Of a stretch of DNA of 64,000 nt, positions 1 to 64,000 are shown piece after piece. Each line of letters begins with the position of its first letter. The stretch's first letter is position 1. The translations under genes and the position numbers were made by a program. Origin of the DNA: a virus. The stretch lies in IMG/VR virus record IMGVR_UViG_3300009523_000001, positions 53,666-117,665 of that record; one strand, written 5' to 3'. The notes under the pieces were generated by a model. It did no database searches. It worked only from the letters and a program-made list of their open reading frames with translations, and was not told where the DNA came from.

Positions 1-1456
1 TCTGGTTGAAGCTATTTCCGGTACCGGTCGAACCACCGCCGAACGACAGGGGACCGTTCGTGAGAAGCGTGGACGCCCACGCGGCGGCGCCGAATGAGTT
101 GTAGAAGTTGCCACCTGAGTTGGCGTTCATGGAGTAAAGGCCCCACTCGGAGTTGCTATTCAGGACAACCGTTCCGTTCTCCTCCACATTGAATTGGCCC
201 GCTCCCATGTATACGCCGGCGTAGGATGCGACACACCCCAACGTACTGGCGGACACGGAAGAACTCGGCAGTAGGATCGTCTGGCCATTGACGGCAGTTG
301 TGCCGGATGTGCAGACAAACTCCGACCGAGAGGCCCCTGCGACGAATCCTGTATTGCCGGAGACCGCGGTGACTATCCCGGTCACGTCTGTACCTTCGGC
401 CTGCGCGATGCCCGTTCCGCCCCGAATGTTCAATGTGCCGCTTACATTGGACAGGACAAGCAGAGATGAGAGCGCATAGTTCGTGAAGCTGTAGTTGCCA
501 CTGATCTGGGCCATCGCGACGGCCGAGACTCCAACGTTGCCATGACCGGACCACTCTCCGACGTTGGCCAAGGACGGGTTCTCCAGTACGATCGTATCGC
601 CTTGCGCCCACGAGCTGTTGGTGCTCACGCCTAGAGACGGCGGAACGAAGTTCAGTGGCTGCTCCACGGTCGCCGATCCAGCGTCGACGGACAGAATGTA
701 CGCGTAGGATTGGCGGCCGGCGGCGGTCGTGTTCTCGAGGAGCTGGCCAGGTGCCGCGCCATCCGGCATACCGGCAACCGTGAGCAGAGTTCCGCCCTCG
801 ACGATGACTGGCTGCGTGACCACCCCTGCCTCGAATGTCGTGACCGTCTGCGGCGTCACGAAGAGAGCGGATCCACCTAGGGTGGAGGCATCTTGGCTCG
901 TTGCGTAATTTGGCGTGAAGAAGATGACGTCGGTGTTCGGGATCTGGGGCGTCAGGAGGTAGAATGCCGTGAACTGCAGCAACGTCGGCGACTGCGTACC
1001 CAGTCTATGGGTAATGATTTCGCCGAACGTCGCGCACGGCAGCGCGATCGTCGTGCATGGGTTGGTGTCCGACCCGGTGGAGGCAACGTACCACGCGGAG
1101 ATTCCCCAGGCGGGCGGGAAGATCGGATTGAAGGCGCCAGCAGATCGCGGGCGCAGCGGCTTGGGCTTCTTGCATCTCCATTTCCCGTCAAATGCAATGC
1201 ACGCGTCGTAGTCGATGACCGTCTGCGGGCGTTGGTCGACGTACGGTGCGGCCTCGGATTCGACCAACGCCCCCTGCGAGAGTCGGTAGATCCTAGCAAA
1301 CACCGCATTCGGCGCGTCGGCCAGGATTCCGGCGTCGGACACCTGTGCTTCCGCCGATTTCTGAGCGTCGGACGACTCAGTGACTGGACTGCACGCGAGG
1401 AGCGCGAGGGACACGAGCGCAACAAAAGTGCGGGACATCAACCGATTTTCTTCCAT
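1..1456 (-). CDS. Lipoprotein with probable right-handed beta-helix domain (3' end runs off window)
   Basis: Open frame read by hand (absent from ORF track): MEENRLMSRTFVALVSLALLAC lipobox, then YVASTGSDTNPCTTIALPCATFGE (beta-helix N-cap motif) and G/S/T/N-rich beta sequence to base 1. Confidence 0.6.
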   Translation of the reverse strand, partial: MEENRLMSRTFVALVSLALLACSPVTESSDAQKSAEAQVSDAGILADAPNAVFARIYRLSQGALVESEAAPYVDQRPQTVIDYDACIAFDGKWRCKKPKPLRPRSAGAFNPIFPPAWGISAWYVASTGSDTNPCTTIALPCATFGEIITHRLGTQSPTLLQFTAFYLLTPQIPNTDVIFFTPNYATSQDASTLGGSALFVTPQTVTTFEAGVVTQPVIVEGGTLLTVAGMPDGAAPGQLLENTTAAGRQSYAYILSVDAGSATVEQPLNFVPPSLGVSTNSSWAQGDTIVLENPSLANVGEWSGHGNVGVSAVAMAQISGNYSFTNYALSSLLVLSNVSGTLNIRGGTGIAQAEGTDVTGIVTAVSGNTGFVAGASRSEFVCTSGTTAVNGQTILLPSSSVSASTLGCVASYAGVYMGAGQFNVEENGTVVLNSNSEWGLYSMNANSGGNFYNSFGAAAWASTLLTNGPLSFGGGSTGTGNSFNQ

Positions 1457-1807
1457 CGCCCGAATGTACTCTCGCGCGTACCGTCTGCGATCGATGACGT
1501 AGCTCATCCGGCTCCGTCTGGTAGTTTCGCAGTGCGCCCTTGACGGGTCAAGTGCGAGTTTTCCCAGCTAGAACACTGTTGCCGCGCAAGGCACGGAGCA
1601 TCCGACAGTCTAGCGGATGCTTCAGTGCGCGTGCTGCGAACAGTCTCCGCACCGTCCGCATACGACGCAGACGAGCACCTGCAGGCCGTTCGCTTGGTTC
1701 TGGCAGTCATCGCCCGAGCACGCCGCGACGATGGGGTCGACGAGCCCCTGGGGTCGTGCACGCAACCAACGGTGAGAACTCCGTAAGGAGCACCAGTACA
1801 AACCATC

Positions 1808-1897
1808 TCACAAAATGACTGCCCATCCGACACCTCCCGCATTCACGGTTCCTGTTGCCACACGTGCGGTCCGTCCTCGGTCCATGATGCGGCTCAT
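1808..1897 (-). pseudogene. Degenerate remnant of the fibre-gene 5' end (MSRIMDRGRTAR..., 29 codons)
   Basis: DNA 1862-1901 aligns with the start of the 14583..15764 gene (cgtgcggtccgtcc..cgg.c.atga.g..gctcatggtg). Confidence 0.45.
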
Positions 1898-1930
1898 GGT
1901 GCGGTACTCAGGCTACCACTAGGATCCGTG

Positions 1931-1976
1931 ACCGGACTAAGTAATACCTGAGACATACTTAGGTATGTCGGTTACG
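1931..1976. promoter_or_regulatory. Conserved ~40-bp motif, copy 1 (GACATAC-TTAG-GTATGTC palindrome)
   Basis: Aligns with copies at 18141 and 30891. Confidence 0.6.
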
Positions 1977-1992
1977 GTCTGGATTGCCAGCG

Positions 1993-4900
1993 TCAAGTCT
2001 GGGTCGAGATGAGGCGATCGACGGCGGCTGAATCGAAGAACGCCAGGTGCGCCGAGGCGTCGTTCACCCCGAAGCTGACCACCAACCGATCGCCGTCGCG
2101 AGCCAACCCGGCGGCGAATTCGATGCCCTTGCGCTCGAAGTAAAACGGCTCGGAGATGCTCCGGATCTCGAGCTTCTCGGTCAGCCGGACGAACCGGTGA
2201 AGGTAGATCCGTCCAGGGGTGTGGACGACCTCGTGCACGAGGCAGAGGAAACTGTCTCCGTGCGGGATGACCTGCGATCCGCCGCGCAGCTCAGTCAGAT
2301 TTTCGTCAAGATCGGTGATGCGGAACCGCTCGGTGGTTTTCTCCGGCGCGCAGTCGATCACGATCGTTGGGTCGCACAGGTAGAGGAAACTGCCGGGTTG
2401 CCCGAGGATCGGCATCCAGTTCTTCTGCGCGCGGTCGTGCTCGTAGTCGCGAATGACGCGGACGTCCGTGATCTTCCACTCGTGGTCGATCGTGAGAATG
2501 CACTGTTCGCATCGTCCATCGCCTAGATCGCGGACGACGGCCGACGCGCGAAACTTGTCGCCGTCGAGCCAGAGCCGGCAGTCCTCGAACCCTTCGACCG
2601 GGTAGCTCGTACGCGGGAGGCCTGTCGCGTCGGTCAGGAGTGTGGGCGATCCGGTCGGCTTCCACGTCTTGTTCATCTCGAGGATCCAGTTTTTGGTGCG
2701 GATGATGCCGCTGCCGTCGATCGTGGGGTACTGCCCCTCGGCGACCGTGTAGTTCACGGTGCGGACCAGCACGAGCCGCCGGTCGCCCACGACGAGCACC
2801 GACGGGTTCATCGGCGCGTACCCATCGTCCGATTTCCAGTCGATCGCGCGCAGCTCGGCGCCGCAGAGCTCGCGCGCGGTCTTGACGTAGTGAACGAAAT
2901 TCCCTCGGGCCTCGCCGCGCACGTTGGCGTCCCGGTCGATGGTCAGTCGGGCGCACGCGTCGTAGCCGGCCTGCCGGCGCGCGGGGAGCTTGCTGTAGAA
3001 CCCGCTGATGGCGACATCGGGCGCGTTTTTGCGTTCGTAGACATCCTTCTCGACGAAGAGGATTTCGTCCGGGCAGGGCATCCGTGCGACCTGTTCGGCG
3101 AGGAGGATCGCCGCATCGCTCTTGCCGTGCTCGCGCCACCACCGCGCGAGCAGCGCCAGCGGTTCCGCGCGGGTGGGTCGGAAGTTGTAGGCGTCGAAGC
3201 AGGCGAGGACGAGCGCCGGCTCGTCGTTCAACGCGGCATGGCTGCGCGCGATGCCGTAGTGCGATGCCCAGACTTCTTCGTCCCACCCGCCGGCGGCAAT
3301 CCGGCGCGTGTACCACTGGATGGCCTCCTGCTGCCGTCCCATCTCGCGGTAGGTGTTCGCGAGGTAGAACATATAACGGGCGTTGTCCGGCTCCCGGGTG
3401 AGGCCGTCCATGAGCAGGCGGATGTCCCGATCGCCCTTGTCGCCCTTCGACCCGCCGTCGTTGCGGTCGTCGATGGAGCACGAGTCGAGGTTCGGCGGGG
3501 TGTCGCCGGGAACAGAGAGAAACTCGTGAGTGACGCCGACGTACTGCGCGACCACGTCGCGCCGAACGAGCCGCGTATTCCAGTAGTGAAGGGCTCCGGT
3601 CAACTGCTGGAGCCGGTACGCGGGCGCGGTGAGCGCCCGCTTGTCCAGCGACCCCCGGAGCACCATGTCGGCGTCGATAAGCAGGGCGTAGTCCCATCCG
3701 TCGTACGCTCGTGCTGCCTCGAGCGACTCGTTTCTGGCCTGGGCGAAGTTCTTGAACGTGGTGCGGACCAATTTGCCGGGGACTTGGTGCTCTTTGAAAA
3801 ACCGCTGGATCGTCTCGAATGTCCCGTCGGTCGATCCGGTGTCGGTGATGACCCACTTGTCGATGAAGGGCAGCGCGGCCGAGAGGCACCGCTCGATGAT
3901 GGCGCTCTCGTTCTTGACGATCATCACGAGGCAGATCCGGGTGACCGTCGATTTCTCCTCCTTGTGCTTGCCGCGGGCGGCGGTGGCACGGCGTTCAAGC
4001 CGATTCATGGGGGTGTCTCCGTCACGTGGAATATCGATGATGCTGTCGTCGTGGTCGGCCTGGTACCAGTCGAACCGCTGGCCCTCTCGTTCCATCTCAG
4101 CCCAGGTGTTGACCTCCCAGGTGATCTGCTGCATCCGCCGGAAAACGGCGTGGTAGCGCTCGACGAGCTCGGGGATCGATTCGCGGTCGACGAGCAGAAA
4201 GCCACCGCAGAATCGCCAGTTCACGTCGTCGTCGGTCGCGCGCGCTGCGGCGGTCTCCTTATTCCAGCAGCCCGGTGCAAGTACGCATACAGACGGGGGA
4301 TGGAGCGCACGCAGTCGGTCGAGGAAGCTCGCCGGATTCTTGACGACCTTCATCACCGCGAAGTCGATCCAGGCGAAATGCGAAGAGGAGTCGTCGAGCT
4401 CGCGGGCGAGCGCAAGGAGATCGAGCTTGGCGTTGATGAGCAAGAGGGAACCGCGCGCGTCCTTTTCTGACGAGCGGGTGCCCGGAAGCGTTCGGGTGCC
4501 GTCGTCGTGCTGGAACGGCCACAACGATTCGAGGTCGGTCAGTTCCACTTGAACGTTCGGGTGCTTGGGCGCTCGCTCGGCGAGCTGCCGGTCGAGAAAG
4601 AGGAGGATCGGCAGGCCGCTCGCGGCGAGCTCGGAGAACCATCGAAAATACGCGTCTTCGTCCACGGTTCGATCCCGCAGCCGGAAGAACGCTGAGACAA
4701 AACGGGTGCTGGAGATCGGACGTTTCAGCAGGGTGAGCACATCATCCATCCGGGTCGGTCTTTCGGGACGTTTCTTCTGAGACGATCCGCGCTCTCTGGC
4801 GAGTGCGTGGAGCCGCTCGTTCCACTCAACGCCCTCGCGGGTCACCATCTCCGCGAGCTCCGGCAGCCGACTCGAGCTGACCTTTTCCGCGTGCCATGCG

Positions 4901-6693
4901 ACGACGTCGCGCAACGTGACCGATTGGAAGCCCGCTTCGGCGAGCACGGTTTGGATCCACGTGTCGCCGTACCAGAGGCGCAGCTCCGGCGGGATCGGGA
5001 ACGCGATCGTGACCGCTTCCCGTGTCAGGGCGAAAAACGCTCCGGCCGTGTGCTTTGGGTCGTTGGTCGATTCTCCGGACGGCCGCACGGCGCCGGCGGC
5101 TTCGGCTTCGGTGCCGACCCGTCGACCCACCCAGACCTCTCGCCGGCCGCGCGCGCGGTCGAACCGCTGGAGCAGCGATGAAGACCATCCTGGACTGACG
5201 ACGAGGTCGGCGTTCGCAATGACGAGGATCTCGGCGTTCGACTCGAGAAACCGTGCGGCAAGCTGATTCCAGGCGGGGTTGACGTAGACGTTCTCCGGAT
5301 TGCGCAGGACCGTAATGGTGGCCCCCATTTCGTCGAGCGCCGATTTGACAGCCGGCGCGCCGCCGTTGTCGATCGCCACGACGTCGACCCCCGGCTCGCA
5401 GAACGACCGGAGCGCGCGCACGAGGAGATCGTGATCCTCCGCGAAGCACGGTACGCCGAGTACGATGCGGGTGCGCTGGGTGCGCGTCAGCACCGTGAGG
5501 CCGTTGTTGTTGTGCAGGCGGACCTCGATCCCCCATTCCGGATGCGCCGCAATGAATTCTTCGACCGCGGGCCAGAGGCCGGGACCGACGTCGCCCTCGT
5601 CGCGGGTGCCGTAGGTCTCCGTGTCGTGCAGCACGATGTGCTTGCGTACTTTCGGTCCGTGCAGGGCGAGCTCCTGCCGGAGCTGCGCGTAGGTGTGGAT
5701 CGTGTCGATGAACAGAAGATCGGTCTCGTCGATGCCGACCGACAGCGAGCTCACTCGCTGGAAATCAAAATCGATCCCCGCTTCTGTGGCCACCTTCTTC
5801 TGAAGATTCACCTTGTCCCGGATGTCGTAACAGCGCATCCGCTTCGGCCGGCCGTGGAGCAGACCCCATGTCGACAGACCGACCCCCAACTCCGTCACGC
5901 GTTCGCAGTCTTTGGCGTACATCGAGAGCATCGGGATGTGCTCGTGGATGTCCGACGGGGTGTCCCGGGCAGCGACGTACTGGCGTTCGATCTCTCCAAG
6001 ACTTCTGCAGGCTTTGCTGAGCCGAGACCACGCAACCCGGTCGTGCGCCGTCATGGAATGAAACTCGGGCACGTGGCCGCCGCTGACGAATCCCTCGTGC
6101 CACACGGCCATGCCGTAAAGCGTTCGCTGCCGAAAGCCAGCCTCCGAGAGCAGCGAATGGATCCAGTCATCGCCGCAGTGGATGAGCAGCTCCGGCGGGA
6201 TCGGGAACGCGATGGACACCGCCTCCCGCGTCATTGCAAAGAAGGCGCCGCTGACCGATCGGCCCGACGAACCATCGACCGTATCGATGGATGCGGTCTG
6301 CGCGCGCGAGGCTTCGTTCACGCTCGAGAGGGCTCGTCCGAACCAGAACTCTCGGTCGCCCTTGGACCGCGAGTGGTCGCGGCGCAGCAGCAGGGAGGCG
6401 GACCAGTGAGGGGCTGCGATGAGGTCCGCGTTCGCGAGGACGAGGATCTCCGAGTCGGATGCGAGGAAATGCGCGGCAAGCTGGTTCCACGCCGGGTTCA
6501 CGTAGATGTTCGTTGGGTTGCGGAGGATTTCGATGGACGGTTCCATTTCGGCCAGCACGGCCTTCACGTCGGTCGCCGCACCGTTGTCCACGGCCACGAC
6601 GGCGACCTCGTCCTCCAGGAAGGATCGAAGGGCGCGCGTCAGCAGCTCGCGAGGCTCCGCGAAGCAGGGGACACCCAGCAAGATGCGCGGCAT
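1993..6693 (-). CDS. Giant multidomain glycosyltransferase (GT2-like, class I methyltransferase, GT2-like, HtrL/WlaTC-like, GT2, TPR, beta-propeller-like)
   Basis: Duplicated RI[LV]LGVPCFAE...N[IV]YVNPAWN...ANADL module; DLLFIDTIHTY methyltransferase; FAWIDF...WRFCGGF HtrL-like; ICLVMIVKNESAIIERCL...DAD GT2; RYMFYLANTY TPR; KNWMP/GIEFAAG propeller; ATG 6693 overlaps upstream TGA. Confidence 0.85.
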   Translation of the reverse strand: MPRILLGVPCFAEPRELLTRALRSFLEDEVAVVAVDNGAATDVKAVLAEMEPSIEILRNPTNIYVNPAWNQLAAHFLASDSEILVLANADLIAAPHWSASLLLRRDHSRSKGDREFWFGRALSSVNEASRAQTASIDTVDGSSGRSVSGAFFAMTREAVSIAFPIPPELLIHCGDDWIHSLLSEAGFRQRTLYGMAVWHEGFVSGGHVPEFHSMTAHDRVAWSRLSKACRSLGEIERQYVAARDTPSDIHEHIPMLSMYAKDCERVTELGVGLSTWGLLHGRPKRMRCYDIRDKVNLQKKVATEAGIDFDFQRVSSLSVGIDETDLLFIDTIHTYAQLRQELALHGPKVRKHIVLHDTETYGTRDEGDVGPGLWPAVEEFIAAHPEWGIEVRLHNNNGLTVLTRTQRTRIVLGVPCFAEDHDLLVRALRSFCEPGVDVVAIDNGGAPAVKSALDEMGATITVLRNPENVYVNPAWNQLAARFLESNAEILVIANADLVVSPGWSSSLLQRFDRARGRREVWVGRRVGTEAEAAGAVRPSGESTNDPKHTAGAFFALTREAVTIAFPIPPELRLWYGDTWIQTVLAEAGFQSVTLRDVVAWHAEKVSSSRLPELAEMVTREGVEWNERLHALARERGSSQKKRPERPTRMDDVLTLLKRPISSTRFVSAFFRLRDRTVDEDAYFRWFSELAASGLPILLFLDRQLAERAPKHPNVQVELTDLESLWPFQHDDGTRTLPGTRSSEKDARGSLLLINAKLDLLALARELDDSSSHFAWIDFAVMKVVKNPASFLDRLRALHPPSVCVLAPGCWNKETAAARATDDDVNWRFCGGFLLVDRESIPELVERYHAVFRRMQQITWEVNTWAEMEREGQRFDWYQADHDDSIIDIPRDGDTPMNRLERRATAARGKHKEEKSTVTRICLVMIVKNESAIIERCLSAALPFIDKWVITDTGSTDGTFETIQRFFKEHQVPGKLVRTTFKNFAQARNESLEAARAYDGWDYALLIDADMVLRGSLDKRALTAPAYRLQQLTGALHYWNTRLVRRDVVAQYVGVTHEFLSVPGDTPPNLDSCSIDDRNDGGSKGDKGDRDIRLLMDGLTREPDNARYMFYLANTYREMGRQQEAIQWYTRRIAAGGWDEEVWASHYGIARSHAALNDEPALVLACFDAYNFRPTRAEPLALLARWWREHGKSDAAILLAEQVARMPCPDEILFVEKDVYERKNAPDVAISGFYSKLPARRQAGYDACARLTIDRDANVRGEARGNFVHYVKTARELCGAELRAIDWKSDDGYAPMNPSVLVVGDRRLVLVRTVNYTVAEGQYPTIDGSGIIRTKNWILEMNKTWKPTGSPTLLTDATGLPRTSYPVEGFEDCRLWLDGDKFRASAVVRDLGDGRCEQCILTIDHEWKITDVRVIRDYEHDRAQKNWMPILGQPGSFLYLCDPTIVIDCAPEKTTERFRITDLDENLTELRGGSQVIPHGDSFLCLVHEVVHTPGRIYLHRFVRLTEKLEIRSISEPFYFERKGIEFAAGLARDGDRLVVSFGVNDASAHLAFFDSAAVDRLISTQT

Positions 6694-7946
6694 CACGAAG
6701 CTCGGAAAATGAGGACGTTGTCCCCGTACCACGGCATTCGAGTGAGTTTCGTCCACTCGGCTTTCACGGCGGCAGTCCTCGTTTCGTCAACCGAGAAGCC
6801 CTCCGCGCCGAACTTCGTGATCCAGTACGTCGGCGGTTGGCAATTGATATGATCGTGGCCCCCTTGGCCGATCGGTGCGGCTGTCAGCAGGATCGAACCA
6901 CCCGGCGCGCATGCCCTGCAGAGCTTGCACACGAGCGTGTCTGCGTCCTCTACCGGCAGGTGCTCGGCCACCTCCATGCACGTCACGAGGTCGTAGGGAG
7001 GCGACGCCCCAAAGGCCGCATCGCCCGCCGTGATGTCCTCCTGCCATAGGTAAAGTCGGACGGCGGCGTCTGCCCGGTCGAAGGCGGCCGTGGAGCCTTC
7101 TAGCCCCCACGCATCCACGCCCAGTTCGCGCAATCGGCCCACGAATTGCCCCGGACCGGCCCCCACGTCGAGGACCCTCTGGGGCGAGAGCAGACGAAAG
7201 ACCATCTCTGCGGCGGTTCGGATGTCCGCTTTCTGGAGACCCTGGTATGCGTCGAAGAAGTGGGCGTCGTAGATGCCGTCCAGGTTGCGGCGCGAACGGT
7301 GGTAACTCGCCAGGCGCGGGTACCTGCGCTTGCTCCGGAAGAACCGATCCGCCGCCAAGGTGGGCGCTCCTCCGGAAGGGTCGGTTCCGGATTCCCCGTA
7401 CATGACCAAGACGTCCTCGACCCACCGCGTGCGGTCCCATCCCGCCATCTCGACCATCGGGAACATCGTGGCGTGATCGACCGCGCGTCCTGTCCATGTG
7501 CCGTCCGGGAGCTTCAGGTCGGAGGGGTCGATGCGCTGGAAGAGGCCTGCCCGGAACGTCTTCAGGTGCGAGCACCGCCACGGGGCCGTACGCACGTCTT
7601 CGTCCGGTGCGTAGGGGGCGTTCGTCGCGTGGGTGCGACCGTCCTCGGTCGCGAAGGACCCGTAGGTGAGCCACACGGCCGGGTCCTCATAGAGGCGGGC
7701 GATTCGCGCCGCAACGGTCGTGTGCGCAAACCAGTCGTCCCCGTCAAGCTGCAAGACAACGGCATCCGGATCGAGGTCAGAAACCGAGTCGACGAGGTTC
7801 TCCGAGTGCGTCTTCGGAGTCGGCTGCGACGCGGCTTCGATGAAGATGTGCCGCACCGGGACCGTCTGGGCTGCGACCGAGTGGCGGCATCGGTCGGTGG
7901 GCGACGCGCGAAAGCAAGTCGAGACGACAACAAGTTGCGCGCTCAT
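6693..7946 (-). CDS. GT2-like glycosyltransferase fused to SAM-dependent methyltransferase
   Basis: LDGDDW...WLTYGSF GT-A motif; VLDVGAGPG, CMEVAEHL, GQGGHDHINCQ methyltransferase motifs; ATGA-coupled. Confidence 0.85.
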   Translation of the reverse strand: MSAQLVVVSTCFRASPTDRCRHSVAAQTVPVRHIFIEAASQPTPKTHSENLVDSVSDLDPDAVVLQLDGDDWFAHTTVAARIARLYEDPAVWLTYGSFATEDGRTHATNAPYAPDEDVRTAPWRCSHLKTFRAGLFQRIDPSDLKLPDGTWTGRAVDHATMFPMVEMAGWDRTRWVEDVLVMYGESGTDPSGGAPTLAADRFFRSKRRYPRLASYHRSRRNLDGIYDAHFFDAYQGLQKADIRTAAEMVFRLLSPQRVLDVGAGPGQFVGRLRELGVDAWGLEGSTAAFDRADAAVRLYLWQEDITAGDAAFGASPPYDLVTCMEVAEHLPVEDADTLVCKLCRACAPGGSILLTAAPIGQGGHDHINCQPPTYWITKFGAEGFSVDETRTAAVKAEWTKLTRMPWYGDNVLIFRAS

Positions 7947-8494: not shown

Positions 8495-9060
8495 AACCGA
8501 ACGCACCAGCAGGGGAAGAAGTGCCCCTGCATCTGCGCATCTCCACCGTCGGTGATCCCGGGCCAGACCTCGAAGCGGGCGAACCGCTCGTTGACGGCAC
8601 GGACGACGCCGAACTCTGGATTCTGCCAGTGGATGTAGTCGTGTCCGGCGAGCAGGCCACCCTTTTTGACCTTGGGTCGCCATGCGTCAATGTCTCTGGA
8701 GATGCTATCGCGGTCGTGGTTCGCGTCGAGGAAGACGAAGTCGAGCGACTCATCGGGATAACGGGCTGCGACATTCCACGAGCAACCCTTTTGGATTCTC
8801 CACGCCACGGGAATCTTGGCGAGCCGGCCCATCACGGTTTCTGGAGGGCTGTCGTGAAACTGGTCGACGAGATCCACCTGAGCCGAGACGCCTCGGTTGA
8901 CCAGCTCCACCCCCAAGAAGGCGGCGGATTGCCCGTGGTAGATGCCGACCTCCACGAGGTGCGGCGACGGCTTGCCGATCATCTCTCCGGCCACCCACGC
9001 GTAGAAGTCCGGGAACGTGAAGAAGCCCGGGATCTCTTTGAAATAGTGCTCCATGCCCAT
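8491..9060 (-). CDS. Class I SAM-dependent methyltransferase (tandem paralog)
   Basis: VEVGIYHGQS, SLDFVFLDANH, GGLLAGHDY. Confidence 0.85.
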   Translation of the reverse strand: MGMEHYFKEIPGFFTFPDFYAWVAGEMIGKPSPHLVEVGIYHGQSAAFLGVELVNRGVSAQVDLVDQFHDSPPETVMGRLAKIPVAWRIQKGCSWNVAARYPDESLDFVFLDANHDRDSISRDIDAWRPKVKKGGLLAGHDYIHWQNPEFGVVRAVNERFARFEVWPGITDGGDAQMQGHFFPCWCVRL

Positions 9061-10022
9061 CAGCCTCCGAACACTTCGCGGGCGATCTCGGTTACGGCGA
9101 GCTGCACCGCTTCATCGGACGAGCGAGTCACGCGAAACCCGAGCGCCGCCAACTTGTCCGGCTTCAGGCACGAGTGGGGGACGTCCCCTCGCCACCCTTG
9201 CACGTCCGTGCCGAACGCGATGCGCGCGGACGGGTTCGGCGAGGCCGCAACGCACAGCTCGGCAATCCGCGCCACGCTCGTCGAGTTGGGCGGCGCAATG
9301 TTGTAGATTGCCGGCCGTAGCGCTCCACCCTGTGTGTGATCGAGCACGAAGAGCAAGCCCGCCACGCAGTCGCGGACGTGCAGGTACGGCTTGGACTGGT
9401 GGCCGTCGCCGAGCACGTCGAGATGGTCTGGATGATCCTTGAGCTTCTTGCAGAAATCGAGAAGGACGCCGTGCGTGCCACGCGAGCCCACGACGTTGCC
9501 AAACCGACAGATAACCCCTTCGAGGGCGAAGCACTCCACGAAGGCGGCGAGCATCGCCTCGCTCGCGAGCTTGCTGGCGCCGTAGAGCGAGATGGGCAGG
9601 TGCCCGAGATCCCGTTCTCCGCACGGAACAGAGACGTTGCCGTACACGGTTCCGCTCGACGCGAGCACGAATCGCTTCACGCAGCCGAGGCGGGCGGCCT
9701 CGAGCGCGTTGTACGTGGCGATCGTCCCCTGTTCGAGGTCGAGCCGGGTGTTCGTGAGGCCGTGGCGCGCTTCGGGGTTGGCGGCGAGATGGAAGACGAC
9801 GTCGTGACCCTGCATGGCCACAGCGAGCGCAGGCAAGTCGAGTGCATCCCCGCACACAAGGGTCGCCCGGCCGGAAGCGATCGGTTCGGCGAGAAACGCC
9901 GACTTGCCGACGCTCAGGTTGTCGAACACGGTGACGGGACCGCGCTCGACGAGCTGGTCCACCAGGTGGCTTCCGATGAAGCCGGCGCCGCCGATGACGA
10001 ACGAATGCACTCTTTTACCCAT
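9060..10022 (-). CDS. NAD-dependent NDP-sugar epimerase/dehydratase (extended SDR)
   Basis: GGAGFIGSH, HLAAN, YGASK, RFGNVVG motifs. Confidence 0.92.
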   Translation of the reverse strand: MGKRVHSFVIGGAGFIGSHLVDQLVERGPVTVFDNLSVGKSAFLAEPIASGRATLVCGDALDLPALAVAMQGHDVVFHLAANPEARHGLTNTRLDLEQGTIATYNALEAARLGCVKRFVLASSGTVYGNVSVPCGERDLGHLPISLYGASKLASEAMLAAFVECFALEGVICRFGNVVGSRGTHGVLLDFCKKLKDHPDHLDVLGDGHQSKPYLHVRDCVAGLLFVLDHTQGGALRPAIYNIAPPNSTSVARIAELCVAASPNPSARIAFGTDVQGWRGDVPHSCLKPDKLAALGFRVTRSSDEAVQLAVTEIAREVFGG

Positions 10023-10182: not shown

Positions 10183-10590
10183 TCACCAGAGGATGTAGGC
10201 TTGCTCGGCGCCGGTTTGGCCCGAGTTGGCGGTGTACTTCCACCGCGCCACTTCGCCGCTCGTGGACAAGGAAACGCTGGTGGCGCTGAAGTCGCCCGGA
10301 GCAGCCGGGTTCTCGATCGTGATCGGCGGGCTCGGGGTAACCACGCACGGGTTGTCCAGGCTGCGCACTTTGATGACGACCACGTCGGCCTCTTGGACGC
10401 TCGCGGCGGAGGGCAGGTTGACGGCGCTCTCCGAGGTGAGCAGGATCCATTGATTCCGTGAGCTCGGTGCGTTGTAGATGTTGGCGTTCGGCCTCGTCCA
10501 CGGGACCGGTCCGGATGAACCGCTTCCACCCGTAGGCGCGGTCGGGTACGTCTCGCTTGCGCGTCGCCCTCGCCCGATGACGAAGCTCAT
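10183..10590 (-). CDS. Small fibre/spike-family protein with shared N-terminal peptide and a beta-rich domain
   Basis: [19 protein letters not shown] start; VNLPSAASVQEADVVVIK resembles phage fibre-tip domains. Confidence 0.7.
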   Translation of the reverse strand: MSFVIGRGRRASETYPTAPTGGSGSSGPVPWTRPNANIYNAPSSRNQWILLTSESAVNLPSAASVQEADVVVIKVRSLDNPCVVTPSPPITIENPAAPGDFSATSVSLSTSGEVARWKYTANSGQTGAEQAYILW

Positions 10591-10594
10591 CGAG

Positions 10595-13500
10595 TTAGCC
10601 CACCCACATCAGGACGACGAGACCACTACCCCCATTTCCACCCCCGCCACCCTCACCACCCGCCGAGCTGCCCGATCCTCCGCCGCCACCACCGCCGCCA
10701 CCACTGCCGGAGTTCGCCAGCGCATTGGTTGCATTGGCACCGTCACCGCCTATGGTGCCTGAGACGGCGTTTCCGTTGCCTCCGGCCGCACCGGGCGACG
10801 CGCTGCCGCCGATGAGGTTGCTGCCACCGCCTCCACCACCACCGAGACCGCCCATCTGGCCCGTGGAGGTAGCTCCCGCAGCACCTGCGGCTCCTCCTGA
10901 GCTACCAACCGCGCTATCGAGTCCTGCACCAAAAGGCGAACCACTGCCACCCGTGCCTGGACCGCCTTGCCCGAGGGCAACACTGTAAAAAAGGTATTCT
11001 ACGGTGGCTGCGCCGGAAGTGATGGGGGGTCCACCGCCAGCCACCCCAGGAGCGGAGGTCGCAACGCTTAGCGGGTTGTTGGTCCCGCCAGAAGCGCCAG
11101 GAAATTCGGCGTACGTGGTGGCGTGCGCGACAGAAAAAACGGTTGACACATTGCCACGGCCTCCGTTGGCATTGGAAGCGGCGCCGGCGCCAGCGCCGCC
11201 CGCACCGATGCTGACGGTGAGCACGTCCCCAGGAACGGTCGAAATCATGGGTTCATACTGCGGAGTGGCGGTTCCACCACCGCCACCCCCGTACGACTGG
11301 CTGGTCCCCACTTGACCCGTCGCACCGCAGGCCCCTCCGCCGCCACCGCCGTAGCCCCACGCCTGCATCGTCGTAACGCCGGCCGGGACGGCGAAGGTCC
11401 CTCCCGCGGTGAATATCTGCGACTTGAGTGTCGCCGTCGAGGCTCCCGCTCCGGTCGGACCCGTGGTTCCTTTGGTGCCCGTCGATCCGGTCGGTCCAGT
11501 GACCGTGGATGCCGCACCGGTCGGGCCGGTGACCGACAGACCGGTCGTCCCCGTCGGTCCGGTCACAGTCGAAGCGGCACCCGTCGGACCTGAAGGGCCC
11601 GTCGGTCCGGTGACGGTCGATGCGGCTCCCGTCGGCCCTGTCGATCCTTTGCCCCCTGTCGGGCCTGTGACGAACGATGCAGCCCCCGTCGGCCCGGTTC
11701 CAAGCGCTCCCGTTGGACCGGTGACGGTCGACGCCGCTCCCGTGGGTCCGGTCGAAGTCGCGCCGGTGGCGCCTGTCGGTCCGGTCGCTCCCGTGGCGGA
11801 CGCCGCGCCCGCCGGTCCCGTGGATCCGGTCGATCCCGATGCCCCCGTTGGACCGGTGATTGTTGACGCCGCTCCTGTCGGACCCGTGACGGTGGACGCA
11901 CCCCCTGTTGGCCCCGTGACGATGGACGCTGCTCCGGTGGGGCCGGTGCTTCCGGTCGATGCAGCCCCCGTCGCGCCGGTCGGGCCGGTGACGGTTGATG
12001 CGGCTCCAGCGGCTCCCGTCGGTCCCGTGGCGATGGCGCCGGTGGCGCCCGCCGGTCCGGTCGCACCCGTGGACGATGCACTGCCTGCAGGTCCGGTCGA
12101 CCCCGACGCACCTGTCGGTCCCGTGACTGTGGATGCAGCACCCGTCGGTCCTGACGTTCCCGTCGGGCCGGTTCCAAGCGGTCCTGTTGCACCCGTTGGG
12201 CCGGTGACGGTGGATGTGGCTCCCGTCGGGCCTGTGGACGCGTGGCCGGTGGCGCCCGTCGGTCCGGTGACGGTGGATGCGGCACCGGTCGGACCCGTGA
12301 TCGATGCTCCGGTCGGTCCCGTGACGGTCGACGTTGCACCGGTCGGCCCGATCGGGCCACCGGACGGTCCGGTGGGGCCGGTCATTCCTTGAATGCCGGC
12401 ACCCCACTCGAGGATGATCTCCGCGCTGCCGCCGTTGCCGCCCGTGCCGCCCACGCCGCCCGTGGAACCGTTGCCGCCCGCGCCAGCGCCTCCTCCTCCT
12501 GCGCCGCTGTTGGCGGGCGCGTTGGATCCTGCTGACCCAGCGACACCGGTTCCGGCCGCACCGTTGCCGCCAGCGCCTCCGGCGCCGCCGATCCCCAGCG
12601 GACCGCCGCCGCCGCCGCCGCCGCCGAACCCGCCCGCCTGACCCGAGATGATCGACCCGTTCGCGCCGCCCGCACCCCCGATGTATCCCGCCGGGTTGTC
12701 GTTGCCGAACGAGGCTGTCGCTGTGTTCGTGAATGCGGCCGACCCGCCGTACCCGCCCTGCGCGGGCGCGAGCTGCGCGAGTGGACCGATGTTTACGACC
12801 GTGAGCCCGTCGGCTGTGACGGGAGGACCGCCACCAGGGCCGGTGCCACTGACGAGATCTTGGGCAGCCGACCCGCCGGAGGCCCCGGCCGCCTGCGCGT
12901 AGACCGTGAGGTGTGCGATCGAGGCGACGCTCGAGAGGCCGCCCGGCGATCCGTTCGATCCGGGCAATAGGGCCGCACCACCCACCCCGCCTGCGCCGCC
13001 GAGTCCGACGGTGAGCTGGAGTGTGTCGCCGGGGATGACCGCGATCATCACCTGCGTGGATTCGAGCGCTCCGCCGCCGCCTCCCCCTCCGTTCGATCCG
13101 TCCGCACTGGCGTTGCCGCCGTTGCCGCCCGCGCCTCCACCTCCGGCGGGGACGATCGTCGCGCGCATGGTCGTGATGCCCGGCGGCACGACGAACGGTT
13201 GCGAAGAAGTGGCGACGAAACTCGCTCCCGGGAAGATCGGTCCGGTGGATCCCGTCGGCCCGGTCGATCCCATCGCTCCCGTCGGGCCGGTGGCCCCCGT
13301 GGCGCCTGTATTCGACGCAGTGCCCGCCGGACCGGTGGATCCCGTCGGCCCGCTCGGGCCGGTCGCTCCCGTGTTGGTCGCTGCACCGGACGCTCCGGTT
13401 GGACCCGTACTTCCGGTCGGGCCCGAAGTTCCCGTCGCACCTGTGTTGGTCGCGCTGCCCGCAGGCCCCGTCGATCCCGTCGATCCCGTTGGACCGGTCG

Positions 13501-14569
13501 TCCCGGTGGCGCCGGTGTTCGATGCGGTGCCTGCCGGACCCACTGAACCCGTTGGGCCGGTCGATCCCGTCGCGCCGGTGTTGGTCGCTGCGCCGGACGC
13601 TCCCGTCGGTCCCGTGCTTCCGGTCGGACCTTTGGTTCCCGTCGCGCCGGTGTTGGACGCGGTGCCTGCCGGTCCCGTTGCTCCCGCTCCCGTCGGTCCG
13701 GTGGCGCCGGTGGCGCCGGTGTTGGACGCGGTGCCTGCCGGACCCGTGGATCCCGTCGTGCCGGTCGGTCCCGTCGCACCGGTATTGGTTGCGCTACCTG
13801 CTGGGCCGGTCGCGCCCGATGCGCCCGTGGGTCCCGTGACTGTGGATGCGGCGCCCGTGGTTCCTGTCGGTCCGGTTCCGAGCGGTCCCGTCACCCCGGT
13901 CGCGCCGGTGACGGTGGATGCGGCTCCGGTTGGGCCCGTGCTTCCGGTCGGACCTTTGGTTCCTGTCGCGCCTGTGTTGGTTGCACTGCCTGCGGGCCCG
14001 GTCGATCCCGTCGATCCCGTGGGCCCCGTGACGGTGGATGCGGCTCCCGTCGGCCCAGACGCTCCCGTCGGACCGGTCCCGAGCGCTCCTGTGGCTCCCG
14101 TCGGACCGGTGATGATCGATGCTGCTCCGGTCGGTCCCGTGTTCCCGGTGGCTCCGGTGGATGCCGCCCCTGTCGGGCCTGTCACTGTCGATGCGGCACC
14201 CGTCGCCCCCGTGCTTCCGGTCGGGCCCGTGGTTCCCGTTGCGCCGGTGTTGGTGGCGCTACCCGCCGGTCCCGTGGCGCCCGACGCGCCGGTCGGTCCC
14301 GTGACGGTCGATGCGGCGCCTGTCGCTCCGGTCGGGCCGGTGGTGGACGGACCGGTCGATCCCGTCGGTCCTGTTACGGTGGATGCAGCCCCTGTTGCAC
14401 CGGTCGGGCCTGTGGTGGACGGACCGGTTGCACCCGTCGAACCAGTCGCCCCGGTCATTCCGGTCGGCCCTTGGCTCGGTCCGGTCGGCCCCGTGCCACC
14501 GCCGCCCGATCCCGGTGCGGTCGGGTACGTCTCGCGTGCGGTCCGTCCGCGGCCGATGATGAAACTCAT
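10595..14569 (-). CDS. Collagen-like fibre protein (Thr-rich GPT/GAT/GST triplets) with two Gly-rich domains, 1324 aa
   Basis: [17 protein letters not shown] start; long G-X-T runs; F(V/A)VP(P/A)G[IV]TTM...GGGGG Gly-rich domains. Confidence 0.85.
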
Positions 14570-14582
14570 TCGGATCTCCCTC

Positions 14583-15764
14583 TCACGCGAGCCACGCGAT
14601 GCGCACTCCTCCCGAGCCTCCGTTGCCGCCCGCCCCTCCGGTGCCTGGAGTAACCGTTCCGTTGCCTCCGGCTCCGCCACCCCCGCCACCCGATCCGCTG
14701 TTGGCGACGGCGCTGTTGCCTGGGCTGCCGTTGACCCCCGTGGTCGATCCTCCGTTACCCCCCGCCCCGCCGGTGGCCCCGTCGCCCGCACCGCCGAAGA
14801 TGTTGGGTCCGCACCCACCTCCGCCGCCGCCGAAGCCGGGGGATCCGGGGGATGCAGTGCCGGTCGCGCCCCCGAGGCCGCCATGCTGCCCGGTGCTGTC
14901 GGGATTGTCGTTGCCGTCGAGGGCGGCGGTATTGCCCACGAGCAGCAGGCCCGACCCTCCTCCCGATCCACCCTGAGCGGGTGAAGTGCTCATGGGCAGG
15001 AAGTTCGTGACGGTGGTGGCGCGGGAGGTCACCGGAGGCCCTCCGCCGGGCGCTGCGGATGCGTCGCCCGATCCGATGGCGGTTCCGCCGGACGCGCCCG
15101 CTGCGACGACTAACGTGAGGGCGTGAGCCAGCGAAACGATGGATGACTCTCCGCCGGGCGACCCGTTGGTGTTGGCCGCACCCCCCGCACCCCCCGCACC
15201 CACGGCGATCGTGAGCGAATCGGCGGGAGTCAACCCCGTCATCACCCCGGTGGCGAGCAGCGATCCGCCGCCTCCCCCTCCCCCATTGGATCCGGTTCCG
15301 CTCGTGGCTCCAGCCTGAGCTCCGGCGCCGCCTCCTCCGCCGCCGTAGATTTCGTAGCTGGCCCCCGTCACTCCTGCGGGCACCACCCACGCTCCGGTGG
15401 CTCCCGTAAAATTCAGCACGTGCAACGTGAGACCACCAGCGCCGGTTGGTCCCGTCGATCCGGCACCGGTGGCACCCGTCGCTCCCGTAGCGCCCGTGGA
15501 CGCGGCTCCCGTCGGACCGGTGGCACCCGTGCCCGATGCGGTTCCTGCGGGACCCGTCGCGCCGGTCGGCCCCGTGACGGTGGACGCGGGGCCCGTCGCG
15601 CCGGTGGGCCCGGATCCTGTCGCTCCCGTAGCTCCAGTCGTTCCTGTTGCCCCCGACGGCCCCTGGCTCGGTCCGGTCGGGCCCGTGCCGCCTCCGCCGC
15701 CCGATCCCAGTGCGGTCGGGTACGTCTCGCGTGCGGTCCGTCCGCGGCCGATGACGAAGCTCAT
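14583..15764 (-). CDS. Collagen-like/Gly-rich fibre protein (short paralog)
   Basis: [20 protein letters not shown] triplets, [25 protein letters not shown] domain. Confidence 0.85.
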
Positions 15765-19811: not shown

Positions 19812-19844
19812 GCCCTCGAGCGTACGACGGTTCGGCGAGCGCGT

Positions 19845-20417: not shown

Positions 20418-20437
20418 GCGGACCAGCGTACGCCGCT

Positions 20438-58005: not shown

Positions 58006-59751
58006 ATGGCGGCCCCGAACCAGATCACCCTCGCCTTCTCCGTCGCGACGACCAACACCATCTACACGCCCACGCAGGCCGCCGCGAAGCTCGCCGCGGT
58101 TCCGCTCTACTCGTCCGACGGGACAGACCAAGTGCTCGGGCAAGCGTTCGGGCTCACCGTCGGGAGCGACGTCGTCTCGATCGGCGGCGTGACGGTCACG
58201 GGGGAGGCGGGCCATTTTGTGCCCGGCGAGACCGTCACAGACGCACCGGGTGGTGGAACCGCCACGGTTGCCGTCGACGAAGAGAACGGGACGCTCTACT
58301 TCGTCGAAGGAACCGTCGTCGGCCTATTCGCGCACGGCGACACAATCACCGGCGGCACGTCGGGCGCGACGGCGACCGTCAACAACGCGGCGGCTGGCGG
58401 CGGCCCCACCCCCACGACTCCGGGAGCCACACGCGTGCTCGTTCTCACCATGACGAGCGTGCTGGGAGCCCCCACCGCCCCGCCGCCGTTTCTGTGTCGG
58501 CCGACCGGCCCCCTGACGCCGCCACCAGCCGGTCAACCCGTCCTGCCGTACACGTTGACCGAGACCACCATCGACCGGTACACGCGCTTGCCCGTCACGA
58601 GCCCGGCGCCCGCCGCAATCGCAGCGTTCTACTCGACCAGCGATCTCGACACCGATGGCGTCGCGACGACCCCCGCGATTCCAGCCGGCAGCGGCGCGCA
58701 GATCATGACGCTCACCTACCGCGACTCGACCGGAGCCGGTCCATTTACGGTCCACACGAAGCTGATGGGCAAGTACCCGGCTCAGGTCACGCTCGCCGGC
58801 GGCAGCATCGACATCGCCGAGATCGTCGTGTGCTTCATCGAACAGACCGGAGCCTTCGAGAACTCCGTCGGTCAGATCACGCTCGCCGCGCTCGAGGCCG
58901 TCCTGCCGCCTATCCCCTCCCGCGCCACGCCCGCGGACTTCCCGGCGCTCACCGACGCCGCGCAGATGACGATCACGAGGCCCCTCATCTACCTGCCGCC
59001 GAGCTATTTCGCGCTCTCGCAGCAGCAGAACAGCGCTCCCCAGCTCGCCGGGGACTTCTGGGTCAAGAAGGACTCTTCGGTTGTGCTGACGACGGTGAGC
59101 CAGATCGGTATCATCGCATCGACCAATACCGTCGAATTCGCCGCGCAACTGGGAACGATCTATGAAATCGCAGCGGTCAGCGAGACGTTCGTCGAGCTTA
59201 CGACGCCGTATACCGGCCTCACGCGCCCGGAGATCGCCCCCGCAGCGGAGAAGCACCGCTACGCGCAGTCGGTGAACGAGGAGGCCGATGCGGTCACAAC
59301 CTCGGCGGTCCTCGTGTCTCCCGCCGCAGCAGGCGGCGGCCCCACGCAGGCGGCGCCACCGGACAACGCGCACCTCATGACGCTGCTCGCGGAGTTCACG
59401 TTGCCGCAAACGACGGCGCCGGCGCTGACGTACGTCGACGTCGCAGGTGGACCGTTCACGCCGGGCGAGACCGTGAAGGGACAGAAGAGCACCGGGTCGG
59501 CCACAGTGCTTTACGATGATCCAGGTGTCGACGAGTCGGGAATGCTCGCTTTCAATTCCGGCTCGGTCCAGAAGGGCTTCGTCAAGGGAGAGACCGTGAC
59601 CGGACAGACGTCTGGTGCGACCGCCACGGTGGTCGTGCCCCGCACGCTGGCGTCGAATCCGCTACCAACCAAGCTCTCCGGCCTCTACGCGCGCACGCTG
59701 TCGCTTGTCTTGGGGGCGCCGGTTGTTTCGCAACCGATTACGCTGGTGTAA
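58006..59751 (+). CDS. Putative virion structural protein with GETVT..SGATATV repeats
   Basis: Two FxPGETV../G[DE]T[IV]TG.TSGATATV modules typical of phage structural proteins; Thr/Val/Pro-rich. Confidence 0.6.
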   Translation: MAAPNQITLAFSVATTNTIYTPTQAAAKLAAVPLYSSDGTDQVLGQAFGLTVGSDVVSIGGVTVTGEAGHFVPGETVTDAPGGGTATVAVDEENGTLYFVEGTVVGLFAHGDTITGGTSGATATVNNAAAGGGPTPTTPGATRVLVLTMTSVLGAPTAPPPFLCRPTGPLTPPPAGQPVLPYTLTETTIDRYTRLPVTSPAPAAIAAFYSTSDLDTDGVATTPAIPAGSGAQIMTLTYRDSTGAGPFTVHTKLMGKYPAQVTLAGGSIDIAEIVVCFIEQTGAFENSVGQITLAALEAVLPPIPSRATPADFPALTDAAQMTITRPLIYLPPSYFALSQQQNSAPQLAGDFWVKKDSSVVLTTVSQIGIIASTNTVEFAAQLGTIYEIAAVSETFVELTTPYTGLTRPEIAPAAEKHRYAQSVNEEADAVTTSAVLVSPAAAGGGPTQAAPPDNAHLMTLLAEFTLPQTTAPALTYVDVAGGPFTPGETVKGQKSTGSATVLYDDPGVDESGMLAFNSGSVQKGFVKGETVTGQTSGATATVVVPRTLASNPLPTKLSGLYARTLSLVLGAPVVSQPITLV

Positions 59752-63096: not shown

Positions 63097-63145
63097 TTCA
63101 GCGTGAGCGAATCGTCCTGCATTGCCGCGATGGCTATAGGCGCGC

Positions 63146-63487
63146 TCACGTACCACCACACACCCGCGCCGACCGCAATTGGGCTTCACGCGCGGCGTCG
63201 ATCAGCTTCTGGCATGCGCCCGTCGGGTCGTTCGTTCCGAGGTCGCCGCACACCGTAACCTGCGTCTGAATGGCGACGTTGCGTTCCTCGAGTGCCTGCT
63301 GGCAACTCTCGCCCGCGTCGACGTACGCGCACGTGTGTCCGCCCCAGCCTTCGGTGCACGGCGGTGCCTGAGCGGGCGGACCGCCGCATGCGATAGTGGC
63401 CAACGCTATTGAGATTGCCTGCGTGATCTTCAAGTTGGTCTCCTTCGCGCGCACGTTACTGCGCCGTTTCTGGTGACACGGGCGCAC
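63146..63487 (-). CDS. Small lipoprotein (start uncertain)
   Basis: ISIALATIAC lipobox. Confidence 0.5.
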   Translation of the reverse strand: MRPCHQKRRSNVRAKETNLKITQAISIALATIACGGPPAQAPPCTEGWGGHTCAYVDAGESCQQALEERNVAIQTQVTVCGDLGTNDPTGACQKLIDAAREAQLRSARVCGGT

Positions 63488-63761
63488 GCAAACCTACGAA
63501 TTGTCCACTGAGCGACCCACGTTCCCACTCGTGGGTACCACCAAGCCCCCTCGCGACAGCGTCGTAGATTCGGTAACGCTGCTCTATTGGCCAGCCAGCG
63601 GAGATTCCGTTCACGACAGCCCAGAGACCAGCCTCGGCCGCCGCAAGGCGTGTGCGAAGCTCGGCGAGCTGGCATCCCACCTCAACCTCACCTTCGCGGT
63701 GGAGTGGCCCCTCGCAGCCACATCGTGAGCAGGTCCGCTGAGCTTCCTGAGCTGCCGTCAT
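63456..63761 (-). CDS. Hypothetical phage-like protein
   Basis: CSRCGC..H; LAELRTRLAAAE coil; GAGG RBS. Confidence 0.5.
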   Translation of the reverse strand: MTAAQEAQRTCSRCGCEGPLHREGEVEVGCQLAELRTRLAAAEAGLWAVVNGISAGWPIEQRYRIYDAVARGLGGTHEWERGSLSGQFVGLRAPVSPETAQ

Positions 63762-63805
63762 GTTTCCCTCGTTCTTTCTCGACTCGCGCGCATGCGGGCG
63801 CGCGG

Positions 63806-63979
63806 TTACTTCCCGCGGTTTCGTTCACGCCACTCCAGCGCCGCACGATGTGCTGGGCCCTTCGAGACGTACGACACCTCGTCGAGGAGCGCTCTGAGGA
63901 TTGACCCGCGCTCTTCGGATTCGGCACGAAGTCGTCGAACCTCTGACTCTGCATCTGCTGGCTGCTGGTCGTAGCTCAC
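63806..63979 (-). CDS. Small coiled-coil phage-like protein (57 aa)
   Basis: VSYDQQPADAESEVRRLRAESEERG..; AGGAGG RBS. Confidence 0.45.
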   Translation of the reverse strand: MSYDQQPADAESEVRRLRAESEERGSILRALLDEVSYVSKGPAHRAALEWRERNRGK

Positions 63980-64000
63980 TGGCCCTCCTTTGCGCGCATG

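Follow-up and report, generated by a model that had tools for sequence, protein, structure and literature searches.

What kind of particle is built by a large bacterial virus in which no gene for a phage head or tail can be recognised? The question is raised by a 64,000-nt stretch of DNA (hereafter the window), which comprises bases 53,666–117,665, the 3′ 64 kb, of the 117,665-bp IMG/VR virus record IMGVR_UViG_3300009523_000001 and has a GC content of 61–73%. An original prediction, made from the letters of the window alone, had described it as a very large tailless, membrane-containing jelly-roll provirus of a probable myxobacterium. In the analysis reported here most of the predicted gene content was recovered, whereas a GroES gene, the provirus status and the myxobacterial host were not. 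The explanation that we favour, and regard as probable, is that the window belongs to a lineage of bacterial viruses, so far undescribed, that are large and tailless and have a membrane and a jelly-roll shell. Two parts of it, which also agree with the original interpretation, are held with moderate confidence: the gene content suggests a large virus without any head-tail hallmark, and the best-conserved structural proteins model as jelly-roll sandwiches nearest to capsid proteins of membrane-containing tailless viruses.

Genes were called by codon usage because the high GC content gives many spurious open reading frames (ORFs; 260 of at least 100 amino acids, aa). This produced 147 genes on the contig, 62 of which lie within or touch the window; a large collagen-like ORF was missed by the caller and was read directly from the translation. 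Pfam and PHROGs were searched with all 147 proteins, and for the 75 upstream proteins the matches listed comprise the complete set of 20 Pfam families and 25 of 60 PHROG families. Coordinates are those of the window unless a contig position is stated. Zero tRNA genes and zero housekeeping genes were detected in the window, in agreement with the earlier description of 64 kb free of housekeeping functions.

A block of genes at 22955–38680 is kept in 14 to 32 of 32 related loci, counts that are lower bounds since several loci are cut by contig ends. The gene for a 438-aa protein within this block was found at 29 IMG/VR loci (longest contig 124.6 kb) and, among 185,579 species represented by one genome each, on three short contigs of metagenome-assembled genomes (MAGs) only. 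Three relatives of 111–125 kb carry direct terminal repeats, have no host flanks and are rated complete by CheckV; the 127-bp terminal repeat of G001 (124,600 bp) was confirmed. Only 25 genes are common to the present contig and three closed genomes, the most conserved being those for the 438-aa protein, a protease candidate and a 198-aa protein (~71% identity × coverage), whereas replication genes differ between genomes and are not among the common 25. Conserved structural genes combined with unshared replication genes are expected of a virus lineage whose identity lies in its particle. The replication genes are of phage type (Sak4, Dda, PD-(D/E)XK exonuclease, Prim-Pol), and the contig runs colinear with G001 except that the replication block at 63–100 kb of that genome is missing from it. 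No description of such a virus group was found in literature searches covering listings and abstracts, and the lineage is apparently both widespread and undescribed.

Three adjacent genes supply the candidates for the shell:

34673..35989 (+): 438-aa major shell-protein candidate, a jelly-roll-type beta-sandwich in its AlphaFold2 (AF2) model (32 of 32 loci)
36087..36683 (+): 198-aa protein, strictly conserved, a candidate for a second shell or a vertex component (31 of 32 loci; 71% identity × coverage)
36696..37682 (+): 328-aa candidate penton-like protein, a single jelly roll with disordered N-terminus in its AF2 model (31 of 32 loci)

No protein of the lineage is better conserved than the 438-aa one (66–80% identity), whereas fibres and membrane proteins vary. 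No match to it was found in Pfam, PHROGs, PDB sequences or, by tblastn, 50,697 phage records, and neither the protein nor the family profiles A1 and A2 gave anything below E 0.5 against PDB sequences. A set of 5.8 billion proteins contained 369 homologues (172 representatives at 50% clustering), none of them named and none with a Pfam domain; the best 120 of the 369 are 67–82% identical and come from contigs of up to 252 kb. A protein identical to it is recorded on a 163-kb contig. The AF2 model, based on a 72-sequence alignment (pLDDT 83.2, pTM 0.82), is almost all beta with ~18 strands, and the weak top rows of a Foldseek search were papillomavirus L1 and the mavirus capsid and penton proteins. 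We read the predicted fold as a jelly-roll-type sandwich; among solved structures its nearest relatives would mostly be vertical jelly-roll capsid proteins, at scores below the safe level. Directly 3′ of the gene lies a terminator-like hairpin (36029..36050, +), suggestive by its position alone because hairpin-type sites in the region are not above chance (13 versus 9.1 ± 3.3 in shuffles).

The 198-aa protein had no match in Pfam, PHROGs or PDB sequences; its neighbours in the ESM Atlas were unnamed viral clusters, in which the few labelled members belong to Uroviricota. The 328-aa protein was modelled from 27 sequences (pLDDT 70.5), with the first 60 residues disordered and about eight strands. 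Its best match, standing above all others, was a capsid chain of a membrane-containing icosahedral virus, the modelled range of which begins at approximately residue 39. This fits the penton protein of HHIV-2, in which the first 40 residues are disordered (PMC6414509), and we infer the matched chain to be that protein. A second comparison and Foldseek returned generic jelly rolls only (picornavirus, birnavirus, geminivirus, PHM, lectins), and ESM Atlas features pointed to single jelly-roll capsid clusters at 0.85–0.89, a level rated as a lead only.

Genes for a head and tail were sought on the contig and in related genomes. Among the matches listed for the 147 contig proteins, no terminase, portal, HK97 capsid, tail tube, sheath, baseplate or tape-measure family was present, in agreement with the original prediction, in which no HK97 capsid, portal, terminase or tail genes had been recognised. 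Six-frame searches with Terminase_6N, TerL_ATPase, Phage_capsid and Phage_portal (PF03237, PF03354, PF05065, PF04860) covered five genomes drawn from the record and five relatives; all carry a 100% completeness rating and three have direct terminal repeats. None of the five matched any of the profiles, control genomes were positive, and very divergent forms of terminase can be missed by such searches. In closed G001 every protein of at least 280 aa falls into one of four classes: homologues of contig proteins, replication proteins (Prim-Pol, SF2 and Dda helicases, Sak4, PD-(D/E)XK, ParB, ThyX, Dam), fibre-like proteins, and TnpB-like or recombinase proteins. The TnpB-like protein of G001 (106546-108339; 597 aa), a mobile element within that genome, has a zinc ribbon recognisable by eye. 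With regard to the HK97 fold, the two core proteins modelled were those of 438 and 328 aa, and the former is an all-beta sandwich rather than HK97.

The shell genes are embedded in a conserved module of candidate core, membrane and entry proteins, listed here together with two sets of genes outside it:

22955..24974 (+): early part of the module, with 149-aa and 127-aa proteins, a RadC-like JAB protein (23931-24491; PF04002 RadC, E 6e-25; 20 of 32 loci) and a 147-aa acidic protein
24984..26837 (+): Pro-rich protein with repeated AMLAMQKQLFEMMQAMQ helices (144-bp repeat × 2.3; 22 of 32 loci)
27785..28873 (+): 362-aa protein with C-terminal membrane anchor (transmembrane, TM, segment 327-345; 27 of 32 loci)
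30060..30740 (+): transglutaminase-core (papain-superfamily) cysteine protease candidate (PF01841, E 7.6e-6, contig 83914-84213; 26 of 32 loci)
31191..34577 (+): Arg-rich repeat (‘protamine-like’) protein that also has hydrophobic segments and ends in a Pro-rich tail (48-bp repeat × 5.6; 27 of 32 loci)
37682..44063 (+): membrane and entry proteins, namely a 332-aa anchored protein (28 of 32 loci), the SLT enzyme of the next line and 292-, 464- and 504-aa proteins with a GRPVxxFGxG motif (TM segments, motifs)
38695-39492 (+): SLT lytic transglycosylase with its own TM anchor (PF01464, E 1.7e-4; phrog_196/4928, E ~1e-36)
19509..21549 (-): four small proteins with an N-terminal GRPVxxFGVG-type motif, two with clear C-terminal membrane anchors (motif and hydropathy scan)
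58006..59751 (+): 581-aa protein, conserved and scoring high for codon usage (no Pfam or PHROG family; homologues in G001, G004 and G005)

The early genes at 22955..24974 are kept in 14–20 of the 32 loci. The 127-aa protein among them had been taken for GroES, an assignment that we drop, as Cpn10 (PF00166) had no match on the contig at E ≤ 1. The Pro-rich, 362-aa and Arg-rich proteins have no family in Pfam or PHROGs; the repeated helices of the first may indicate a scaffold-like protein. A LysM reading of 27785-28873 and an SGNH reading of 39500-40378 were impressions only, Pfam being empty or giving a weak EspG match. The protease candidate is the second most conserved core protein (71% identity × coverage), and its PF01841 match, at 22.9 bits against a cut-off of 23, places the papain-fold protease of the original prediction right at the family threshold. 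In the 1.2-kb gene-free gap upstream of its gene, a perfect 45-bp tandem duplication (29958-30047; 2.0 copies, 100% match) is accompanied by two promoter-like sites on the opposite strand. The Arg-rich protein, with about ten Arg-rich repeats followed by hydrophobic segments, corresponds to the protamine-like core protein predicted earlier.

A crude hydropathy scan indicated ~11 membrane-anchored proteins in the window, in approximate agreement with the more than 12 of the original prediction. A GRPVxxFG(V/L/M)G-type motif recurs in seven otherwise unrelated proteins (19509-21549, -; 39500-44063, +), in six of them within the first 21 residues; it could function in protein sorting or mark a site for a protease. 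In the seventh (40766-42160) it stands at residue 158, directly after an internal Met, so this gene may start later or may be two genes.

Upstream of the window (contig 30999-40395, -; L002/L003), eleven coupled genes encode strongly acidic proteins whose ends or linkers are rich in Arg (...EARRR...). The majority are conserved in G001, G004 and G005, and the first has a GHKL ATPase domain; the products may be protease-processed internal or ejected proteins, or DNA mimics. Further along (contig 48036-49238, +), a 400-aa ORF consists almost entirely of PVGPVT(V/M)DAA-type repeats and has a G001 homologue (72% over 254 aa), but with its low coding score it is doubtful whether this is a real gene.

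At the 5′ end of the window, a glycosylation operon (1993-10022, -) composed of a glycosyltransferase, three methyltransferases and an NAD epimerase/dehydratase adjoins a group of fibre genes:

1993..6696 (-): 1567-aa multidomain glycosyltransferase with three GT2 stretches and TPR (PF00535, E 1.6e-23; phrog_13126 beta-1,4-glycosyltransferase, E 7.4e-24)
6693-7856, 7943-8494 and 8491-9060 (-): three methyltransferases (Methyltransf_23/25/12/11 and Methyltransf_24, E 4e-11 to 1e-14)
9060..10022 (-): NAD-dependent sugar epimerase/dehydratase (PF01370, E 6.8e-38; phrog_540, E 1.1e-43)
10183..15425 (-): fibre genes (translation, tandem repeats, PF21722), comprising the following three
10183-10590 (-): 135-aa fibre-region protein (translation)
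10595-14971 (-): collagen-like ORF composed of G-x-T repeats and two Gly-rich domains, probable start ~14569 (translation, tandem repeats)
14583-15425 (-): 280-aa Gly-rich protein (translation)

Both the glycosylation operon and the collagen fibres of the original prediction were thus recovered, along with a protein in the fibre-gene neighbourhood that matches Gly_rich_2 (PF21722, E 4.5e-7). Homologues of the glycosyltransferase are present in G001 (76%) and G004 (58%). The proteins at 10183-10590 and 10595-14569 (both -) begin with a near-identical peptide, MSF(V/I)IGRGR.A.ETYPTAP, of which a looser form, MSYVIDRRRYAREY, opens a 537-aa protein at the start of the window; judged from these sequences, the shared leader may be a common anchor for different fibres.

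Taken together, the window would hold the virion-building genes, most of the particle half, of an uncultured double-stranded DNA (dsDNA) bacterial virus of ~120 kb or more. Its particle would be tailless, with a shell of jelly-roll proteins in which the 438-aa protein is the putative major component, the 328-aa single jelly roll a penton-like one and the 198-aa protein a further shell or vertex part. This shell would cover a membrane bearing about eleven anchored proteins, among them the lytic transglycosylase, probably used for crossing the cell wall. The DNA would probably be condensed by the Arg-rich, partly hydrophobic protein (31191-34577), and virion proteins would probably be matured by the transglutaminase-fold cysteine protease (30060-30740). 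Collagen-like fibres (10183-15425) would serve for attachment, probably after modification by the virus’s own glycosylation/methylation operon (1993-10022).

The ends of the record and its accessory genes bear on how such a virus is maintained. On the 5′ side of the window the contig carries on for another 53.6 kb; the 3′ end coincides with the end of the contig. A 5015-bp metagenome contig (L067) is 100% identical over the last 4186 bp of the record and then continues for 829 bp (4187-5015); in the original prediction both ends of the element had been placed outside the window. The 829-bp extension had no match to the 5′ start of the record, and a comparison of the contig ends gave neither direct nor inverted terminal repeats. 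We think that the record is incomplete despite its CheckV rating of 100%, because it lacks a replication block of the G001 type, is extended by the 829 bp and shares an identical 438-aa protein with the 163-kb contig. If that contig comes from the same virus, perhaps ~45 kb are missing from the record.

One gene of potential relevance to integration was identified:

46153..47052 (-): tyrosine recombinase (PF00589, E 2.3e-15; PF02899; integrase PHROGs)

This gene, correctly named in the original prediction, is also found in G001, G004 and G005 (~30% identity in the latter two), and its product could serve integration or dimer resolution. Accessory or defence-type genes carried by the virus include an MNT/HepT toxin-antitoxin pair, an N4/N6 DNA methylase and a Fic-domain protein (44140-45041, 51696-53554, 21561-22022); for these and the recombinase the family was assigned from Pfam and the member from motifs and lengths. 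A 283-aa protein adjoining the methylase is possibly a restriction enzyme. An insertion sequence (IS) with DDE_Tnp_1 and a SWIM finger lies inside the viral genome (50152-51381, -). Judging from its SLT domain and its bacterial accessory genes, the virus probably infects cells that contain peptidoglycan.

Several results weigh against a jelly-roll virus. Foldseek searches of PDB and BFVD returned nothing at E ≤ 0.001 for the 438-aa or the 328-aa model. Only about one barrel (113–156 residues) of the 438-aa protein aligns, too little to show a double jelly roll; the similarity to jelly rolls is weak, with lectin/CBM-type sandwiches and phage receptor-binding proteins scoring equally well; hhalign detected no kinship among the 438-, 198- and 328-aa families (probability < 1%); and the particle is predicted here from genes alone. 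The main gap concerns packaging, for which the lineage has no detectable conserved motor. The six frames of the contig contain a single canonical Walker A motif, in a UvrD helicase, there are no P-loop genes near the module in the 32 related loci, and no P-loop family is common to the three closed genomes. A 590-aa HerA/DUF87 ATPase in the G001 replication block (86970-88742; L040:6970-8742), which matches PHROG 2666 labelled ‘terminase large subunit’, occurs in four of six genomes (G001, G002, G003 and G005), always far from the capsid-candidate genes, and is absent from closed G004 and from this contig. As a packaging motor it was set aside as unproven, given its absence from G004. With no conserved motor, a scenario was kept in play in which the Arg-rich membrane protein condenses the DNA, which would then be enclosed at assembly.

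The strongest rival makes use of the same scenario: a virus of another architecture, enveloped, pleomorphic or new, in which a membrane wraps DNA condensed on the Arg-rich membrane protein and the jelly rolls are matrix, spike or receptor-binding parts. The want of a conserved packaging ATPase of any type, the many membrane proteins, the hydrophobic segments of the Arg-rich protein and the tie of the jelly-roll matches with lectin/CBM-type and receptor-binding folds would all suit it. We nevertheless consider it unlikely, given that the 438-aa protein is the best conserved of the lineage while fibres and membrane proteins vary, which is the usual behaviour of a shell protein and not of a receptor binder, and that the capsid chain of a membrane-containing icosahedral virus stands above the other matches of the 328-aa model. 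It is improbable that this is a tailed phage (Caudoviricetes) in which the genes for terminase, portal, HK97-fold capsid and tail have diverged beyond the reach of Pfam and PHROG profiles. Divergent phage groups have escaped profile searches before, the few labelled Atlas neighbours of the 198-aa protein are Uroviricota, the SLT domain has a match at the C-terminal end of a ‘baseplate hub’ PHROG, and there is the ‘terminase large subunit’ label of PHROG 2666; yet the latter falls on a HerA/DUF87 ATPase missing from one closed genome, the four hallmark Pfam families are absent from all five complete-rated genomes with controls positive, and no structural PHROG appears for the 147 proteins among the matches listed. 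Furthermore, closed G001 leaves no large protein unexplained, the best-conserved structural protein models as an all-beta sandwich rather than an HK97 fold, and nothing was found in the 50,697 phage records.

Integration in a myxobacterium, as originally envisaged, is also quite improbable. It would account for the tyrosine recombinase here and in relatives, for one Polyangiaceae MAG with the capsid-candidate gene on two short contigs, for the identical 438-aa protein on the 163-kb contig and for a GC content of ~65%. Against it, neither end of the 117.7-kb record carries host genes among the matches listed, and the record and its relatives are classed as virus records, three of the relatives with direct terminal repeats. 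Of the three short MAG contigs with the gene in the 185,579 species genomes, two were in a Binatia MAG and the rest in the Polyangiaceae MAG; in a sample of 401 genomes from the phylum of the latter, the capsid-candidate profile matched one, namely that MAG itself (two short contigs). The same sample held no close copy of the IS transposase (at most 48% identity, 7 of 401 genomes), and with 48% as the best identity no host is inferred from it. Highly improbable, finally, is a non-viral element, such as a large plasmid with a cell-surface, spore-coat or secretion cluster. Glycosylation, collagen-like, membrane, toxin-antitoxin and restriction-modification genes, and the ParB of a relative, also occur on plasmids, and no packaging motor was found; but the records are classed as viral and the closed ones as complete by CheckV, the structural block is the conserved core while replication genes vary, those replication genes are of phage type, no conjugation family turned up in the family scans and the block is nearly absent from the 185,579 species genomes.

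A tailless, membrane-containing jelly-roll virus of bacteria is therefore the explanation that we retain as probable. A bolder version of it, possible but in our view doubtful, would see a deep (order- to realm-level) lineage of bacterial viruses of 110–165 kb with a jelly-roll shell over a membrane and with neither a conserved terminase nor an FtsK/HerA motor. DNA would be condensed on the membrane-anchored protamine-like protein and enclosed at assembly, virion proteins would mature through a transglutaminase-fold protease that reads the shared leader motifs, and the lineage would be an independent counterpart of the large eukaryotic jelly-roll viruses.

According to a 2026 paper, large size among dsDNA viruses was reached in two realms only (PMC13598248). 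Bacteria and archaea do have tailless, membrane-containing jelly-roll viruses, and those that could be placed have small genomes. If the proposed interpretation is true, large jelly-roll viruses would not be limited to eukaryotic hosts, genomes could be packaged without either known motor, and soil and sediment viromes would contain a major virus group that current marker-based classification is unable to place. The lineage supplies concrete proteins for cryo-electron microscopy and for marker profiles. Whether the virus is of the jelly-roll type or of another architecture, either way these would be widespread, unplaced large bacterial viruses without a known packaging motor.

Among known systems, the sphaerolipovirus-type viruses (Helvetiavirae; HHIV-2, HCIV-1, SH1, and P23-77 of Thermus) resemble the proposed particle in being tailless and membrane-containing with adjacent jelly-roll shell genes and a single jelly-roll penton, and they have membrane proteins beneath the vertices (PMC6414509). 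Their two major capsid proteins are each a vertical single jelly roll. Sphaerolipoviridae genomes are given as linear and ~30 kbp and those of Simuloviridae as circular and 16–19 kb, versus 111–125 kb or more here, where the largest shell candidate is 438 aa. Sphaerolipovirus-type viruses have an FtsK/HerA-type packaging ATPase by the capsid genes, whereas none adjoins the module and none is conserved in the present lineage, and no sequence similarity between the two was found.

PRD1 (Tectiviridae) and STIV (Turriviridae), with genomes of 15–17 kb, share with the proposed virus a tailless particle, an internal membrane and a membrane-associated lytic transglycosylase, which in PRD1 is P7. They are Bamfordvirae-type double jelly-roll viruses, as is PM2. 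The length of the 438-aa protein would suit the capsid protein of such viruses, yet the 141–156 residues that align make up about one barrel only, and for the A32/FtsK-type packaging ATPase of PRD1 and STIV the present lineage has no conserved equivalent. Sulfolobus polyhedral virus 1 (SPV1; Portogloboviridae, PDB 6oj0), a ~20-kb virus of an archaeal hyperthermophile with a condensed nucleoprotein core, has a single jelly-roll shell protein over a membrane, as proposed here, and no sequence similarity to the lineage. Compared with all three groups, the lineage has a genome four to eight times larger, no linked FtsK/HerA ATPase and no detectable sequence similarity.

It further carries an Arg-rich core-type protein, a candidate cysteine protease, collagen-like fibres and a glycosylation operon, traits that recall the Nucleocytoviricota (PBCV-1, iridoviruses, poxvirus D13). 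In those viruses genomes reach at least 100 kb, the collagen-like fibrils are glycosylated, virion maturation involves a cysteine protease, and basic core proteins occur together with an internal membrane. No B-family DNA polymerase or RNA polymerase was among the Pfam matches, and no search was aimed at an A32 ATPase or VLTF3. Gene organisation and accessory genes here are bacterial, unlike those of the Nucleocytoviricota (translational coupling, SLT hydrolase, RadC, HepT/MNT, IS, restriction-modification), and the likeness to the large eukaryotic jelly-roll viruses may best be read as an analogy of lifestyle, not as kinship.

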